Origin: a bacterium
GTDB taxonomy: Bacteria > UBP15 > UBA6099
Length of the DNA stretch: 64,000 bases
Direction: 5' to 3'
NCBI GenBank assembly: GCA_029564595.1
Contig: JAKQPS010000120.1
Span: forward strand, 16,424 to 80,423
The notes under the pieces are model-generated. The model had not been told where the DNA came from, made no database searches, and saw only the letters and a list, made by a program, of their open reading frames with translations. Positions 42,330-55,193 of this stretch are shown here, in pieces; the stretch's first letter is position 1, and every line of letters starts with the position of its first letter. Made by a program: the position numbers and the translations under genes.

Positions 42330-44489
42330 TTACTTCTCCACTTTCGCCTGTTCGGTCTGAGCAGGCGCGTCCACCACCGCGGGAGCGGCGGGTTTCACTT
42401 CGATGCCCATCGCCTGAACCACGAGTGTGGAAATATCTTTGAGTTTCAGTTTCTCTTCCATTTCAATGAGCTTTACGCCGTCTTCGATCATCTGCATGCA
42501 GTACGGGCAAGCGACCGCGATGGTGTCCGCTCCGGTGTTGGCAAGCTCTTTGGCGCGTCGGACGTTGAGCCGTTCGTCGCCGGGCACGTCGAGGTCCATG
42601 TCCATGAAGTAGTTGCCGCCGCCCGCTCCGCAGCAGAAGCTGTCCGCGCATTTGTTCTTCGGCTCGATGGCGGTCACGCCTTTGATGGACTTCACGACGC
42701 TGCGCGGCTGTTTGGTCTGTCCGGCGTACCTGCTCAGGTAGCAGGGGTCGTGATAAACCACTTTGCCAGCCACTTCTTTGGTGAGCTTTATCTTGCCCTG
42801 CTCTATCAGTTCGTTAAGGAACTGTCCGTGATGGACGACTTCGTACTTGCCGCCGAACTGGCTGAACTCGTTTTTCAGGGAGTTGAGGCAGTGGGGGCAG
42901 ATGACCACTATGCGGTTGAACTTTATTGAATTGAGTATCTCGACCTGATTCTTGGCGAGGCTCTGGAAGACATTTTCGTCGCCGAGGCAGCGGGCGGGGT
43001 CGCCACAGCATGTCTCGTTGTCGCCGAGCATCGCGAACTTCACGCCGGCGGCGCGCATGATGGCCATCATGTTTTCGGCGATGTGCTGTTTGGCTTGGTC
43101 ATAGTTTGCGACGCAGCCGAGCCAGAAGAGCACGTCTGTTTCTCCGCCCGCGTCGATGATGTCAGGCATCTCGCCTTTGATCCAGTTGAGGCGGCCCTGT
43201 TGCGGGCCGAACGGGTTGCCGCGCTGTTCGAGCGCCTTGAGGGCGTTCTTCGCGTCCGCAGGCAGCCTGCCGTTCATCATAACTTCCGAGCGGCGCACTT
43301 CGACGAGCTGGTCGATGTGCTCGATCATCGCCGGGCACACTTCCATGCAGGCGCGGCAGGTGCGGCACAGCCACAGCCCGTGTTCGTCGAGCACGTCTCC
43401 GATGAAGGGTTCGAGTTCGAGAGGCTGCTGTTCGGCGGCTCCCTCTTCGCCTTCGGCCTTGGCTCCGTCGCCGCCGGCTTTGGCTTTTTCCTGCGCTTCA
43501 TACATCTTATAGAGCGATTTCTTCAGGGACTGTACTACTTTGCGGGGCACTAACGGGTATCCGCACTGGCTGACCGGGCAGGCCTCTTCGCAGCGTCCGC
43601 ATTCGAGGCAGGCGTCCAAGTCCAGCGCGTTTTTCCATGTGAGATCTTTCGCCGTGGTATGTCCGAAATTGAACTCCTCGACATCGTCGCGGGAGAAAAG
43701 CTCTTCGAGGTCTTCCCTCTGCAGGGAGCCTTTCGGCTTGTCGTTGGAGAACATGTAGTTGGCCGGGATGAGCATGATATGGAAGAACTTGGTGTAAGGC
43801 AGAGAAGCGATGAGGGCGAAGGTGGCCAGCGCGTGAGTCCACCACACGAGCGGGTAAACCACCGGCACGGAAGCTTCGGAGAAGACGCCCATCGCTTTGG
43901 AGACGGCGAACCCGAACGGGCTGTATGCCGACCACGGATCGCCCGCGAACTGAATTCTCAGTCCTTCGAGAACGAACCCGCCGAGAGCGATGAACAGCAA
44001 CAGTCCGAGCATGTACGCGTTCTGCCAGTCGGTTTGCAGCGTCTTCGGTTTCAGAACATATCTGCGGATAATCGCAATCGCAAGGCCGACCACGAGGAAG
44101 AACCCCGCTATGTCAGCCAGAAAAGAGACCGCCAGATAGAGGTTGCCTTTGAAGAAAGTCAGCCCGAAAAGCGGTTTCGTAACGTCAATTTCGACGGTCA
44201 GTATAGCCGTTGTGATAGCCAGCATGATGAACGACCAGAAGATCATCGAGTGAAAGACGCCCGGCATGAGTTTTCTGCGAACGCGTCTTTGCATGACCGT
44301 TTCGACCGCCATTTTTACCACGCGGCCCACAACGTCGCCGAAGCGCTCGTTCGCCGGTTTCAGAGCCTTCCACTGCATGATTTTCTTGTATACCCCGTAA
44401 CCGAAAACAGCGAACGAAGTAATCATGAAAATGTACATCACCCAGTGGTGATGCACGTGCCAGTAATATTCTCTATGCGCCATATCCAT
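42330..44489 (-). CDS. Membrane-bound Fe-S oxidoreductase, heterodisulfide reductase-related (NarI-like TM domain + 4Fe-4S ferredoxin + two CCG domains)
   Basis: 719 aa; five N-terminal TM helices with His residues; CLECGRCEEACP and CRTCRACMEVCP ferredoxin motifs; CCG-type cysteine clusters (NETCCGDP, DSFCCGAGGG, CPYCMQ). Confidence 0.8.
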   Translation of the reverse strand: MDMAHREYYWHVHHHWVMYIFMITSFAVFGYGVYKKIMQWKALKPANERFGDVVGRVVKMAVETVMQRRVRRKLMPGVFHSMIFWSFIMLAITTAILTVEIDVTKPLFGLTFFKGNLYLAVSFLADIAGFFLVVGLAIAIIRRYVLKPKTLQTDWQNAYMLGLLLFIALGGFVLEGLRIQFAGDPWSAYSPFGFAVSKAMGVFSEASVPVVYPLVWWTHALATFALIASLPYTKFFHIMLIPANYMFSNDKPKGSLQREDLEELFSRDDVEEFNFGHTTAKDLTWKNALDLDACLECGRCEEACPVSQCGYPLVPRKVVQSLKKSLYKMYEAQEKAKAGGDGAKAEGEEGAAEQQPLELEPFIGDVLDEHGLWLCRTCRACMEVCPAMIEHIDQLVEVRRSEVMMNGRLPADAKNALKALEQRGNPFGPQQGRLNWIKGEMPDIIDAGGETDVLFWLGCVANYDQAKQHIAENMMAIMRAAGVKFAMLGDNETCCGDPARCLGDENVFQSLAKNQVEILNSIKFNRIVVICPHCLNSLKNEFSQFGGKYEVVHHGQFLNELIEQGKIKLTKEVAGKVVYHDPCYLSRYAGQTKQPRSVVKSIKGVTAIEPKNKCADSFCCGAGGGNYFMDMDLDVPGDERLNVRRAKELANTGADTIAVACPYCMQMIEDGVKLIEMEEKLKLKDISTLVVQAMGIEVKPAAPAVVDAPAQTEQAKVEK

Positions 44490-44570: not shown

Positions 44571-45001
44571 TTACTTTTTCACGCCGACCGGCTTCTCCAC
44601 ATCTATCGCCTTTCGGGTCGCCGCGTACGTCTGCGAACCCGACTTGCCGTACCAGAACCTCGTGAACTGGCTGGTCACGTCGAAGCAGGTTGTCGCCGCT
44701 TCAAGCTTCAGCCCCTTGCTGTCCAGCGCTTTCATGAACGGGGACACCACTGCCCGCGTCCTGCCGAGGCTCCACACGCATTCCACCAGCGCCACTTCCG
44801 CGTCGCTTGCCTCTTCGAGCATCTTTTTGATCCCCGGGCGGTCCATCACCTTTTCGCATTCGTCAACGTCCTCGTACATCGCCACTATCTCGATTCCGTT
44901 GGCTTCCGCGTATGCTTCGATCCTTTTCTTCTGTTCCCCTCTGTCCACCACGTTGCCTTCGTTGTCTACGTACATTCCGCTCGCGTATCCGATCGCTTTC
45001 A
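44571..45001 (-). CDS. Small protein with resolvase-catalytic-domain-like pattern lacking the catalytic serine
   Basis: Start at ATG 45001 with GGAGG 8 nt upstream; MKAIGYASGMYVDNEG...EIVAMYEDVDECEKVMDRPGIKKML resembles serine-recombinase N-terminal domain layout but has no YxRVSTxxQ serine and no HTH. Confidence 0.5.
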
Positions 45002-45233
45002 TTGTCTTTGCCTCCTCTCTATTTTCACTGTTGTTTTTATTTATCTTTTCCATCTTTTTCACCCCTTTCGGCTTCCTTCAGCCTGCGCCTATTAATATAT
45101 CAAGCCCAGCGCCAAGCCCGATGCCAGCTCAGCAATACAACAAATTGTCCTTCTTACAAAGGCATTTTTATTTTGAATTATTTTTTCGCCTGAATTTGCG
45201 CATCGGATTTTTACATCAGGCGCATATAAAACA

Positions 45234-45433
45234 TATTCACCCTCCGGCCCTTCTTGAGAAATAAATCACAATCTACTATGAGATTTGGTGAATGTGTTTT
45301 CTATTCACCCTCCATGCGTTTTTCAGAATCCATAGCTTCTTCATCTGCCGCATACAAATTTTTTCTTTTATTTACTAGGTGTTTTTTCAGTTTTCTCCCT
45401 TCCATCGCACGGTGAATAAAAATTTTATTCACC
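45234..45433. promoter_or_regulatory. Operator-like array: two GGTGAAT-N9-ATTCACC inverted repeats plus duplicated half-site TATTCACCCTCC
   Basis: Read directly at 45287-45309 and 45411-45433; 12-mer at 45234-45245 and 45302-45313; in AT-rich divergent intergenic region. Confidence 0.5.
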
Positions 45434-45625
45434 TGCATTTCTAATCCCCCAGTTTTGCTGTGGTTTTCCACGTTTTTGAGGAACAAACCTTAAATCAAGT
45501 GGATTTTTCGGTTTACAGGTTCGCCTTTTCATTTTGATGGAAAACAACTGCCACAGATTTTGTTATACAGAGATATATGTATATAATTGACTTACTTTAA
45601 AGATGCTAAGCGGAGGAGACGAACG

Positions 45626-46267
45626 ATGTCTGCGGCGTTAAAGAAAAAAGCAATGGCGATAGCGGAGTATCTACAGGCCAACTACGACGACGCGACCACC
45701 TCGCTCGACTACTCCAAACCGCACGAACTGCTCGTGGCGACCATTCTTTCGGCTCAATGCACGGACGAACGCGTGAACATCGTCACCAAAGACCTGTTCA
45801 AGAAATACAGGACGGTGAAAGCGTTCGCGGACGCCGACCTCGGCGAGCTTGAGAAAGACATTCATTCGACCGGATTCTTCAAGAACAAAGCGAAGAACAT
45901 CAAAGGCTGTTGCGCGGCGATAATCGAGAAACACGGCGGCAAGGTTCCGGGGACGATGGAAGAGCTGGTGGAACTGCCCGGCGTCGGGCGCAAAACCGCC
46001 AACGTGGTGCTCGGCAACGCGTTCGGAACTCCCGGCGTGATAGTGGACACCCATGTGTCCCGCATCGCCCAGCGTTCCGGGCTTTCGAAAAACTCCGACC
46101 CCGTTAAGATTGAATTCGACATCATGGAACTTATCCCTCAGAAGATGTGGACGGATTTCTCCAACCAGCTTGTGTGGCACGGCAGGAGAATCTGCGACGC
46201 GAGAAAACCCAAGTGCGGCGAATGCGGCATGATAAAACACTGCGACTTCGGCAAGAAATCACAGTAG
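45626..46267 (+). CDS. nth: Endonuclease III (DNA glycosylase/AP lyase)
   Basis: Start at ATG 45626 behind GGAGGA; HhH-GPD motif LVELPGVGRKTANVVL, catalytic Lys context, [4Fe-4S] cluster C-x6-C-x2-C-x5-C (CDARKPKCGECGMIKHC). Confidence 0.9.
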   Translation: MSAALKKKAMAIAEYLQANYDDATTSLDYSKPHELLVATILSAQCTDERVNIVTKDLFKKYRTVKAFADADLGELEKDIHSTGFFKNKAKNIKGCCAAIIEKHGGKVPGTMEELVELPGVGRKTANVVLGNAFGTPGVIVDTHVSRIAQRSGLSKNSDPVKIEFDIMELIPQKMWTDFSNQLVWHGRRICDARKPKCGECGMIKHCDFGKKSQ

Positions 46268-49790: not shown

Positions 49791-49895
49791 GATTCGTCGA
49801 TTTTGAATTAAGATTTAAGCTCGCCTGAGGCTGGTGAATTTTTTCACATTGAATCTCCGCCGCCGGCTCATTATAATTCTCGCGGGGGAACCGCC

Positions 49896-51299
49896 ATGCT
49901 GACCAATGTGGATTTCACAAGCGGAAAGATGCTTCTGAGGAACGCGAGGACTTTGGATGTCGCCGGCGGGAAACTGCTTGACGCGTCCAACGTGCTGATT
50001 GACGGCGGGAAGGTGGTCGATATCGACGCGGCGTCCGCGCCCCCTTCGGACGCTGACGTGTTCGACCTCGGCGGCCTAACTCTTTCTCCGGGCCTCATCG
50101 ACACTCACGTCCATATACTCAGCCCATATCTGACAGAACAGAAAGGCGTGCCGGGGATGTGGACTTTCAAACAGATGGACCGCAACTGCGAGAACACGCT
50201 CGCTGCGGGAATTGTCTGCGTGGTGGACATGTTGTCCCCGATAAAAGTGCTGAGGCGGCAGCGAAAGAAAATCTCGGCGGGCAAGGTGAACGGCCCGGAT
50301 GTGATGATGTCCGGCGGAATATTCAGTTGCCAAGGCGGATACCCGGAGGCGATAAACCCCGTGCCGAAAGCCGTCGGCGCGCTTGTGGGCCAACCGAAAT
50401 ATCAGCCGCAGTCGCCGGACGAAGCCGCCAAACTTGTGAACTATCTCCACGGCCTCGGAGCGACCGTGATAAAGGTCGGATACACGAGACTTTCCAGACA
50501 ACTCGTCGACGGGCGCTCCCTGCCCGCCATCTCGGATGAAGTTCTGACGGGCGTTTGCGACGCCGCCCATGCGCTCGGCCTCAAAGTCCGCGTGCATCAC
50601 AACTGGTCGGAAGACATGCTGCATCTGGTCGATTTCAAAATCGACGCCCTTGAACACGGAGTTTACGACCGCAACCTGCTGGACGACGAGATAATGGCCC
50701 TTAAAAATCACGGCGCGTCGGTAATCCCGACACTGACCATCAACGACAGCCAAGGCCGTTTTGAAGAAAAGCTGGGATTTCTGCGCAGCGAGCGCGCACA
50801 AGAATATTTCGAGCCGCAAGCGCTCGAACACCTGCTTTGGGTGTGTTCGACGTGGACCAAGTTCCAAGGCGAAAGCTATGACGGCTCCTTCGGTTACACT
50901 CGCGCCAACAGATACTGCTATGAAATCGAATACCGCAACACCCGCAAACTGTTCGAAGCCGGAGTGAAGCTGTACGCGGGAACCGACTGCGGAGCGGTCG
51001 TGGCGTACCCCGGCGAACTTGCTGATGAGATACTGCGTCTGACATCCATCGGGATGACGAACGCGCAGGCTCTCCGCGCGGCGACGAATGAAGCCGCCGA
51101 ATTCATCGGCCGCCCAGACCTCGGAGAAGTCGCCCCCGGAAAAACCGCTCACCTCGCGGTGTTCGAGGGCAACCCGATGGAAGACCTCTCGGCTCTGCGC
51201 CGCGTACGCTATGTGATGAAATCCGGCCGCCTGATGAAAACTTCCCACGACGAGTTGCCGGAATTCTGGCAAGGCTTCACCGTTCTTGCCCCGAACTGA
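49896..51299 (+). CDS. Amidohydrolase family protein
   Basis: 467 aa; GLIDTHVHIL metal-binding motif, conserved downstream His and Asp (GTDCGAV). Confidence 0.8.
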   Translation: MLTNVDFTSGKMLLRNARTLDVAGGKLLDASNVLIDGGKVVDIDAASAPPSDADVFDLGGLTLSPGLIDTHVHILSPYLTEQKGVPGMWTFKQMDRNCENTLAAGIVCVVDMLSPIKVLRRQRKKISAGKVNGPDVMMSGGIFSCQGGYPEAINPVPKAVGALVGQPKYQPQSPDEAAKLVNYLHGLGATVIKVGYTRLSRQLVDGRSLPAISDEVLTGVCDAAHALGLKVRVHHNWSEDMLHLVDFKIDALEHGVYDRNLLDDEIMALKNHGASVIPTLTINDSQGRFEEKLGFLRSERAQEYFEPQALEHLLWVCSTWTKFQGESYDGSFGYTRANRYCYEIEYRNTRKLFEAGVKLYAGTDCGAVVAYPGELADEILRLTSIGMTNAQALRAATNEAAEFIGRPDLGEVAPGKTAHLAVFEGNPMEDLSALRRVRYVMKSGRLMKTSHDELPEFWQGFTVLAPN

Positions 51300-53041: not shown

Positions 53042-53489
53042 CGCTGAACGTCTAATCAGCCCCCCCCGCTTTCCCGGAGCGTCCTCTGCCGAAGGAGACA
53101 CAGACAATCCGGCCTGTCGCCCGTCGCGCATATCGCGAATTTTCAATCGCTCAAGCATAGGTTCATAGATTCGGCTCGTCTTCATGCGACTCTCCATATC
53201 ACCCTGCGGCAGACTTCTAACATGGACGTACAAATATCCATACAAGGTTTAGCCGCGATCAAGTATAACTCCGGAAGACAGGTTCGTGTGTCTGCCGCCA
53301 CAATGCTGAGCGCCCCCCTATTCGACGCAAGATAACGCGTCGCGCGCAACGAGCGGCGCAGTCGCGACAAATTTGTGTTGATGTTGTCATCGTTTTCCTG
53401 TAAACTCGGAATACGGTTCCGGAATGGCGTTTGACCGAATGAACGCCGCGCCGGTAGCTCCGTAAATCATTGAAAGGGCGAATATTTGA

Positions 53490-55193
53490 ATGATTCTGCT
53501 TAATCCGAAAAAATATGATCCGAAAAGGCTCGACCCGGCATCCGCCGAACTGATGAAGAAAACCATCGCGTTCTTCGAGGCAAAGGGCAAAAGAAAACTG
53601 AAACAGGACGACCACGAGAGAGTGTGGTACGCGGACTTTCTGGATTTCGTGAAGCAGGAAAAAGTGTTTTCGAAACTGCTTACGCCGTCCGGTTATTCCG
53701 ACGGCGACCCTGACACCCGGTGGGACAACAACCGGAACTGCGACTTCAACGAGATAACCGCCTTCTACGCCCTGCACTACTGGTACACGTGGCAGGTGAG
53801 CATTCTCGGCCTCGGCCCGATATGGATGGGCAAAAACGAAGAGGTGAAAAAGAAGACGGCGGAGCTGTTGCGCGAGGGCGGCATCTTCGCGTTCGGACTG
53901 TCCGAAAAAGAGCACGGCGCGGATATCTATTCCACGGATATGTCGCTCGCCCCGCAGGCCGACGGCACATACATTGCCAATGGGAGAAAGTATTACATCG
54001 GCAACGGAAACAAGGCGGCGCTGGTGTCCACTCTCGGCAAGATGAAGGACAGCGGCGACTTCGTGTTCTTCGTCGTCGGATCGACTCACGGCAAGTACGA
54101 ATGCGTGCGCAATCTGGTGAACACTCAGTCTTACGTCGCCGAGTACGCTCTGAACGACTACCCGATATATGAATACGACATCCTCACGAAGGGACAGGAG
54201 GCGTGGGACTCCGCGCTGAACACCATAAACGTTGGGAAATACAATCTCGGATGGGCGTCGATCGGCATATGCACGCACTCGATTTACGAGGCGATAGACC
54301 ACGCGTCGAACAGGGTGCTGTACGGCAAACACGTGACGGACTTCCCGCACATCAGGCAGCTAATGACTGACGCGTACTGCCGATTGGTCGCGATGAAACT
54401 GTTCGCGCTGCGCGCGTCTGACTACATGAGGGCGGCGGGGCCGGACGACAGGCGCTATCTGCTGTACAACCCGATGGTGAAGATGAAAGTGACCACGCAG
54501 GGCGAGGAAGTCATCAACCTGTTGTGGGACGTGATAGCGGCGCGCGGGTTCGAGAAGGAAACGTATTTCGAGATGGCGGCGCGAGACATCCGCGCGCTCC
54601 CCAAACTCGAAGGAACTGTTCATGTGAACATGGCCCTCATCATCAAATTCATGCGCAACTATTTCTTCATGCCCGGCAAATTCCCCGAACTAGGCGTGAA
54701 AACAGACCCGGCGAACGACGACTTCCTGTTCAATCAGGGACCGACGCGCGGACTGGGCAAAATCCAGTTCCACGACTACAACATCGCGTACAACAGCGTT
54801 GACTTGCCGAACGTCAACCTCTTCAAAGAGCAAATAAACGTCCTCAAGGAATTCCTCATGACCGCCACCCCCACAGAGGAGCAGGCCAAGGACATCGATT
54901 TCCTGCTCGTGCTCGGCGAACTATTCACGCTTGTGGCATACGGGCAGCTTATCATCGAGAACTCCGCGATAATGAATGTCGAGGACGCGCTGCTCGACCA
55001 GATATTCGACTTCTTCGTCCGCGACTTCTCCAAATTCGCGCTGCAACTTTACTCGAAGACGGGCAGCACGGAGAAGCAGATGGGCCTGTGCCTGAAGATG
55101 ATCCGCAAACCTGTCCCGAACCCGGAAAGATTCAACAAGATATGGAACGAGCACGTCTTCGCCCTCAAAGGCGCTTACACCATGAGCGACTGA
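53490..55193 (+). CDS. Acyl-CoA dehydrogenase family protein
   Basis: 567 aa; overall three-domain ACAD-like layout (tentative family-level call from pattern, not a motif match). Confidence 0.65.
   Translation: MILLNPKKYDPKRLDPASAELMKKTIAFFEAKGKRKLKQDDHERVWYADFLDFVKQEKVFSKLLTPSGYSDGDPDTRWDNNRNCDFNEITAFYALHYWYTWQVSILGLGPIWMGKNEEVKKKTAELLREGGIFAFGLSEKEHGADIYSTDMSLAPQADGTYIANGRKYYIGNGNKAALVSTLGKMKDSGDFVFFVVGSTHGKYECVRNLVNTQSYVAEYALNDYPIYEYDILTKGQEAWDSALNTINVGKYNLGWASIGICTHSIYEAIDHASNRVLYGKHVTDFPHIRQLMTDAYCRLVAMKLFALRASDYMRAAGPDDRRYLLYNPMVKMKVTTQGEEVINLLWDVIAARGFEKETYFEMAARDIRALPKLEGTVHVNMALIIKFMRNYFFMPGKFPELGVKTDPANDDFLFNQGPTRGLGKIQFHDYNIAYNSVDLPNVNLFKEQINVLKEFLMTATPTEEQAKDIDFLLVLGELFTLVAYGQLIIENSAIMNVEDALLDQIFDFFVRDFSKFALQLYSKTGSTEKQMGLCLKMIRKPVPNPERFNKIWNEHVFALKGAYTMSD

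Follow-up and report, generated by a model that had tools for sequence, protein, structure and literature searches.

A conserved palindromic array upstream of a redox operon in an uncultured bacterial lineage: probable enhancer sites of a sigma-54-type promoter

An array of palindromes beside an operon for a resolvase-fold protein and an oxidoreductase

The window, by which we mean the whole stretch of 64,000 nucleotides that was analyzed, contains an intergenic gap of about 570 to 620 bp, its length varying with the start codon chosen for the gene on its left. To the left lies a two-gene operon on the minus strand, encoding a resolvase-fold protein and an Fe-S/CCG oxidoreductase; to the right lies nth on the plus strand (45626-46267). 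The gap between oxidoreductase operon and nth had been described as AT rich in an earlier note on this DNA, and this was borne out, with 35-40% GC in the gap versus 53-63% in the flanks. The first gene of the operon (44571-45053, minus strand) encodes a protein of about 160 amino acids with a serine-recombinase catalytic-domain fold and a weak match to Resolvase_N. An in-frame upstream ATG of this gene, at 45053, is conserved in its orthologues. The second gene (42330-44489, minus strand) encodes a 719-amino-acid protein that combines a NarI/DsrM-like membrane domain with a 4Fe-4S dicluster and two CCG domains, and that resembles HdrD, TfrB, and DsrK.

The small protein belongs to a rare family, represented by 17 clusters among 5.8 billion proteins, and the NarI/Fer4/CCG fusion regularly follows directly after its gene in relatives. 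An AlphaFold model (pLDDT 83) matches serine-recombinase catalytic domains, and comparison at the sequence level agrees. The model stops after a helix resembling the E-helix, and is thus predicted to have neither a helix-turn-helix (HTH) motif nor another DNA-binding domain. In addition, the positions of the nucleophile serine and its partner arginine are not conserved across the family, which reads GY(A/V)SG, CG, AG, or VD. As far as sequence and model can tell, the protein is a catalytically dead member of the resolvase fold. We considered whether a conserved pair of cysteines could make it a DsrC-like substrate and rejected the idea, as conservation fails at C66 and distant members have lost C123. 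In one relative (L024), two tandem paralogues of the small protein are followed by a flavodoxin-like FMN reductase in place of the fusion protein.

The gap holds three palindromic sites, which we call A, B, and C in order of distance from the operon. The two copies of GGTGAAT-N9-ATTCACC that had been claimed for it are exact by direct reading and by pattern search, one at 45287-45309 (site B) and the other at 45411-45433 (site C, the distal site, which is also a perfect 11-1-11 palindrome). By our own arithmetic, about 2e-4 exact palindromes with 14 specified bases are expected per 64 kb. Site A, the site proximal to the operon promoter, is a third and degenerate copy (45219-45241). It reads GGTGAAT-ATGTTTTAT-ATGCGCC on the operon strand and GGCGCAT-N9-ATTCACC, with 2 mismatches, on the plus strand; read along the operon, all three sites are assigned to the minus strand. 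The distances between neighboring sites are 68 and 124 bp, so that the array spreads over about 190 bp. Furthermore, 5 of the 15 GGTGAAT heptamers of the window fall inside 215 bp here, when 6.9 would be expected in the window as a whole. A duplicated 12-mer half-site had also been proposed, and this description holds only in part. The 12-mer TATTCACCCTCC does occur exactly twice in 64 kb (45234-45245 and 45302-45313; 0.2 expected), the first occurrence being the right arm of site A, and what lies beyond its 7-mer is merely a G-rich flank in relatives.

Outside the gap, neither the window nor 30 kb of its flanks (about 95 kb of genome in all) contains another good copy of the motif. A motif search, which had been suggested on the scale of the genome as a means of defining a regulon, defined none over these 95 kb, and a regulon cannot be called upon in support of the enhancer interpretation developed below. 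A match with 2 mismatches on the minus strand at 53477-53499 (GCAGAAT-N9-ATTCGCC) overlaps the start codon, at 53490, of an acyl-CoA dehydrogenase-like gene and is probably due to chance. Searches of Rfam returned no match in the region at the gathering threshold and only chance-level matches at E-values up to 10. Separately, a CRP/FNR-like sequence, TGTGA-N6-TCTCA, lies on the minus strand at 45255-45270, exactly between sites A and B, and is kept in three sister genomes (L005-L007). Only one other such match with at most 1 mismatch occurs in the 64 kb, GGTGAATTTTTTCACA at 49833-49848, some 50 nt ahead of an amidohydrolase gene at 49896.

Conservation of the sites and of their distance to a -24/-12 element

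The first comparison involved the window and the three sister metagenome-assembled genomes (MAGs), which are species-level relatives. All three sites are retained at the same places in L005-L007, including the seemingly degenerate ATGCGCC arm of site A, while site C is present with a different spacer. Across these four sequences, 41 of the 42 half-site columns are invariant, compared with 15 of 27 spacer columns and 219 of 376 (58%) of the other intergenic columns (Fisher p = 2e-5 and 3e-8, respectively). The arms have stayed invariant while the spacers drifted, which argues that the arms are recognized in a sequence-specific manner. With its conserved half-sites, free spacers, and conserved position, the array very probably contains sites for a sequence-specific regulator of redox genes, as had been supposed, and comparative evidence marks it as a real, conserved cis-regulatory element. 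For the spacer of site B (45294-45302), the window has AGAAAACAC and L006 has AAAAAACAC, and L007 (positions 984-992) carries it in inverted form, its ATGTTTTGT being ACAAAACAT reverse-complemented; apparently the loop was inverted by template switching inside the palindrome. Two open reading frames overlapping the array were also examined as genes and set aside. Metagenome gene callers place a 45-amino-acid frame over sites B and C (45301-45438, minus strand), which has no Pfam match and in L005-L007 is broken by a change from ATG to ACG together with a 1-nt indel; it is probably a false gene call. Likewise, a 53-amino-acid frame over the sites has no Pfam match and is not conserved.

We then compared seven further lineages that are 50-63% identical (L008, L009/L012, L010/L015, L014, L020, L023, L025, and L026); a scan of metagenomes contributed only 5 loci. 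Among the distant lineages recovered, nth was not found as a neighbor of the operon. Instead, the upstream neighbor is a co-oriented gene for an acetate-CoA-ligase-like protein in L008, L010, and L020, and a gene for a CBS-domain membrane protein in L025. The sites travel with the operon where nth is not its neighbor, and therefore they belong to the minus-strand operon. The palindromes are unrelated to nth, which has a sigma-70-like promoter of its own (TTGTTA-16-TATAAT, 45560-45587) about 130 bp beyond site C. The picture of an operator array in a divergent promoter region thus finds no support, both for this reason and because a promoter of the -24/-12 type is located 142-334 bp downstream of the sites.

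This promoter was recognizable in all seven distant lineages, where a -24/-12 element lies 111-130 nt ahead of the start codon of the small gene, with its conserved MKA. The element has the canonical form TGGCAY-N5-TTGCW in five of them. Specifically, it is of the TGGCAT-N5-TTGCA/T type in L008 (TGGCATGGGGTTTGCA), L012 (TGGCATCGGGCTTGCT), L020 (TGGCATGGGGTTTGCT), and L025 (TGGCATTCGTTTTGCT), and of the TGGCAC-N5-TTGCT/A type in L014 (TGGCACGCGGATTGCT) and L026 (TGGCACCGCTGTTGCA). The exceptions are L023, whose -24 reads TGGCGC (TGGCGCCGGGCTTGCA, TGGCGC-N5-TTGCA), and L010, whose -12 reads TTGTT (TGGCACGAGACTTGTT, TGGCAC-N5-TTGTT).

When the sites of each lineage were anchored on its own -24/-12 element, their positions proved to be nearly constant. 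The core pattern GMAT-N9-ATKC gives a proximal site centered at -142 to -145 in the window clade and in L008, L012, L014, L020, L025, and L026, and a second site centered at -210 to -214 in the window clade and in L008, L012, L020, L025, and L026; the L014 locus ends before the position of the distal site. In L023 the pair is shifted, to -170 and -237. The spacing between the two sites is 67-71 bp, with the same orientation along the operon in every case but that of L010, which has no match to the core pattern and only weaker sites with 3 mismatches near -147 and -225. Taken together, a dyad at least 100 bp upstream of the promoter and at a conserved distance from it is found in the window and six other lineages. 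The third site is restricted to the window clade, as no counterpart of site C was found in the more distant lineages. Many copies across lineages are asymmetric, with 2-4 arm mismatches. Between lineages the half-site varies at its central base, and the two arms vary in concert, giving GAAT/ATTC, GCAT/ATGC, and, in L021, GTAT/ATAC.

In the window, the positional orthologue of these elements is TGGCGC-TGGGC-TTGAT (TGGCGCTGGGCTTGAT, 45114-45099, minus strand), with the GG of the -24 at 45113-45112 and a predicted transcription start near 45088. Its -12 reads GA, not GC, at 45101-45100. The departure is shared by the sister genomes, since the window and L005-L007 all read TGGC(G/A)(C/T)-N5-TTGAT, and the TTGAT of the window aligns positionally with the TTGCT of L012. 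In the window clade, the change from C to A at the -12 simultaneously yields an extended -10-like sequence, TGATATATT (TGnTATATT), so that a partial or complete hand-over to sigma-70 may have occurred. We infer that the GA variant is still used by sigma-54. The same stretch (45099-45126, minus strand) carries a 12-nt tandem duplication in the window clade, TTGGCATCGGGC followed by TTGGCGCTGGGC and TTGAT, which creates two overlapping -24-like elements. Other sigma-54 promoters are not enriched in the window, where 16 matches with at most 2 mismatches were found and 25 were expected.

Between the sites and the promoter lies a further small dyad. In L007, L008, L012, L010, L014, and L025, CCTTT-N4-AAAGG flanked by runs of A and T is centered at -66 to -70. 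Its counterpart in the window (CCTT-N6-AAGG, 45147-45165, centered near -67 in a region of A/T tracts) has arms of 4 bp and is weaker, or degenerate, relative to that of the other lineages. This dyad could be a site for a bending or architectural protein; alternatively, it could be a weak bidirectional terminator that insulates the promoter.

A sigma-54 enhancer and its alternatives

We propose that the palindromes are probably enhancer sites, or upstream activating sequences (UASs), for a bacterial enhancer-binding protein (bEBP) acting at the sigma-54 promoter of the minus-strand operon 45053->42330. Sites located 142-334 bp upstream of a -24/-12 promoter have the geometry expected of sigma-54 enhancers, not of repressor operators. 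In sigma-54 systems described from comparative genomics, UASs lie at least 100 bp upstream of the promoter and act through looping (PMC4641369). On our model, the palindromes would be bound by a bEBP rather than by some other protein, and the likeliest candidate is a response regulator of the NtrC type whose gene lies at another place in the genome. Dimers of this regulator would bind the dyads centered at -142, -210, and -334 and, once activated, would assemble into an ATPase ring. The A/T-rich DNA with the small dyad near -67 would allow the intervening region to loop, bringing the ring into contact with sigma-54 RNA polymerase held at TGGCGC-N5-TTGAT (45114-45099). ATP would then be spent to open the promoter, and transcription would start near 45088. 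Against this interpretation stands the layout of the sites, since the gap of 68 bp between them and the distance of 16 bp between half-site centers are both wider than in textbook NtrC and NorR enhancers.

The sigma-54 mechanism itself is textbook; it is the motif that is new and the lineage that is uncultured. What had been a repeat without an explanation thereby becomes a regulatory model, open to testing, for an uncultured lineage of anaerobic digesters: the motif is defined (GNAT-A-N7-Y-ATNC), and the promoter, the transcription start, and the kind of regulator are predicted. The model further singles out a gene pair, rare but conserved, whose function would be tightly controlled and gated by sigma-54. 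The regulator and the signal to which it responds would be the quickest route to the role of the enzyme.

Among the alternatives, the one that survives best is that the palindromes serve as operators or activator sites for a one-component regulator of the classical kind, either a Rex-, CRP-, or FNR-like protein or another HTH dimer, working at sigma-70 promoters on one or both flanks. In one variant of this explanation, the extended -10-like TGATATATT has taken over as the promoter of the operon in the window clade. Dyads with conserved half-sites would suit any dimeric DNA-binding protein, the -12 of the window does deviate to GA with TGnTATATT overlapping it, and the CRP-like TGTGA-N6-TCTCA sits between sites A and B. 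Yet we regard the explanation as unlikely. At 142-334 bp from the operon promoter and at least 130 bp from the -35 of nth, the sites are too distant to repress by steric hindrance; loci without nth still have them; and the orthologous promoter has a canonical or near-canonical -24/-12 in seven lineages. Furthermore, the spacing is unlike that of the known boxes. CRP/FNR proteins recognize TGTGA-N6-TCACA and Rex recognizes TGTGAA-N6-TTCACA, while ARG boxes read TGAAT-N4-ATTCA. The half-site letters of the window (GTGAA/TTCAC and TGAAT/ATTCA) are similar to these, but they are arranged as GTGAA-N11-TTCAC, compared with the N6 of Rex. The earlier note had already observed that the spacing fits neither CRP/FNR nor Rex while still drawing the analogy. 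With the spacing incompatible, and with the relatives sharing the core GMAT-N9-ATGCAC and not the GTGAA/TTCAC letters, the analogy is not supported.

The presence of a serine-recombinase fold next to three dyads suggests two other explanations. The first is that a domesticated, dead serine recombinase still acts on res-like dyads, for example as an architectural or co-regulatory partner at the enhancer, or by way of a partner protein. We allow this no more than an outside chance. If it were true, transcription of the genes for a membrane redox enzyme would be switched by a device derived from a recombinase, and the locus would not be a plain bEBP enhancer. The second is that the array is a res-like site, as in Tn3 and gamma-delta, serving recombination or autoregulation by the adjacent protein. 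Like res, the array places three dimer-type dyads directly before a gene of the resolvase family, in an intergenic region between divergent genes, and the inverted spacer of site B in L007 might be taken as a trace of recombination. However, the neighboring protein has no HTH or other DNA-binding domain and no conserved catalytic serine or partner arginine. The N9 spacing is uniform in all subsites, unlike in res, and lineages other than the window clade have only two sites. All assemblies are collinear, with no transposon context and no recombination variants seen among them, and inversion of a 9-bp loop can be explained by template switching within the palindrome. We therefore consider a res site of the usual kind to be very improbable.

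An equally faint prospect is that the palindromes form RNA hairpins with a 7-bp stem and a 9-nt loop, located in a transcribed leader, a 3' untranslated region, or a small RNA. The stem arms are conserved and the loops free, the arms covary between lineages, and the region folds better than its shuffles do (z-scores of -2.6 and -3.3). However, the z-scores are uninformative because any repeated set of palindromes folds well, and paired changes in the arms are equally expected of a symmetric dimer site. The sites are upstream of both the operon and the nth promoters and hence in neither known transcript, there is no Rfam match, and the 2-4 arm mismatches in many copies would break a 7-bp stem. 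Moreover, a distance to the -24/-12 element that is fixed within a few base pairs points to a constraint on the level of DNA. Least probable of all is that the sites are nonfunctional, arising by local duplication or as dispersed palindromes of the REP or MITE kind, since, despite the spacer-like ATGTTTT/AAAACAT strings that the three copies share and that suggest a common origin by duplication, about 95 kb of genome holds no further copies, the half-sites are far more constrained than their surroundings, and the orthologous position is kept across lineages with 50-63% protein identity.

Comparison with known enhancers and candidate regulators

The enhancer interpretation can be set beside several described systems. 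Upstream of the sigma-54 promoter of norVW in Escherichia coli, the NorR enhancer consists of three GT-N7-AC dyads, which nucleate three dimers that form one hexamer (PMC2831303). In both cases three intergenic dyads precede a -24/-12 promoter, and the DNA that separates the two bends at norVW and is predicted to bend in the window; by analogy the three dyads of the window can be read as sites for three dimers of a single hexamer. The differences are considerable. The motif in the window is GNAT-N9-ATNC over 23 bp, the sites extend over about 190 bp whereas those of NorR are packed within about 66 bp, and most of the related lineages have only two sites. In addition, the activator gene is not adjacent, and the -12 of the window is noncanonical.

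A second point of reference is NtrC. At glnAp2, the enhancer sites of NtrC lie around -140 and -108. The proximal site in our window has a similar position, near -140, and the half-site ATGCACC/GGTGCAT is similar to TGCACC, the half-site of NtrC. Another likeness is that the homologous operon of L021/L022 has genes for an NtrC-family response regulator and its kinase beside it. By contrast, the half-sites described here are oppositely arranged and far wider apart (N9, with an AT-rich center) than in the 17-bp NtrC dyad, and they would control a redox operon instead of nitrogen assimilation.

A third parallel is provided by the sigma-54 regulons reconstructed by comparative genomics in Desulfovibrio and in Clostridiales (PMC4641369, PMC6615313). 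There, as in our window, a conserved -24/-12 element is combined with a lineage-specific palindromic UAS at least 100 bp upstream, in front of metabolic and redox operons. What differs is that the lineage studied here is uncultured and that its regulator is not co-localized with the operon in most genomes. Furthermore, an operon that joins a dead serine-recombinase fold to a NarI-HdrD fusion was not among the targets that we found described.

A search of the 64-kb window in six frames for GAFTGA and Walker motifs revealed no bEBP gene. Similarly, no bEBP gene is adjacent to the operon in 10 of 11 homologous contexts, and among all loci fetched only L017/L018 and L021/L022 carry one. L021/L022 is the most distant homologous operon, a high-GC locus whose small protein is 36% identical and whose partner is the same NarI/Fer4 protein. 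It is divergent from genes for a Cache-HAMP histidine kinase and for a regulator with Response_reg and Sigma54_activat domains. This regulator carries GESGTGKE and ESELFGH and is cut off by the end of the contig. The operon there (2400-2900 in L021, 2520-3020 in L022) has a promoter of its own, CTGGCACGCGAGATGC (CTGGCAC-N5-ATGC), together with a dyad of the 7-N9-7 form, AGCGTAT-N9-ATACGCC. This locus is the best lead to the class of the regulator.

The other bEBP gene comes from a contig that shares the first genes of the window (L017). About 6-7 kb to the left of the window, it encodes a Response_reg-Sigma54_activat-HTH_8 protein with GAFTGA, which suggests that the lineage to which the organism belongs makes use of sigma-54 activators. 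We considered this protein as the cognate regulator of the operon and set it aside, since its 39% identity to the regulator of L022 amounts to generic family similarity and allows no assignment. The pilus and regulator region of this contig contains no copy of the palindrome motif. In the same region, which spans L017 5131-11480 and lies about 3-10 kb to the left of where the window begins, a pair of pilB- and pilC-like type IV pilus genes stands beside the sigma-54 response regulator, along with genes for a HAMP-PAS histidine kinase and for a stand-alone receiver, and the system is probably PilS/PilR-like.
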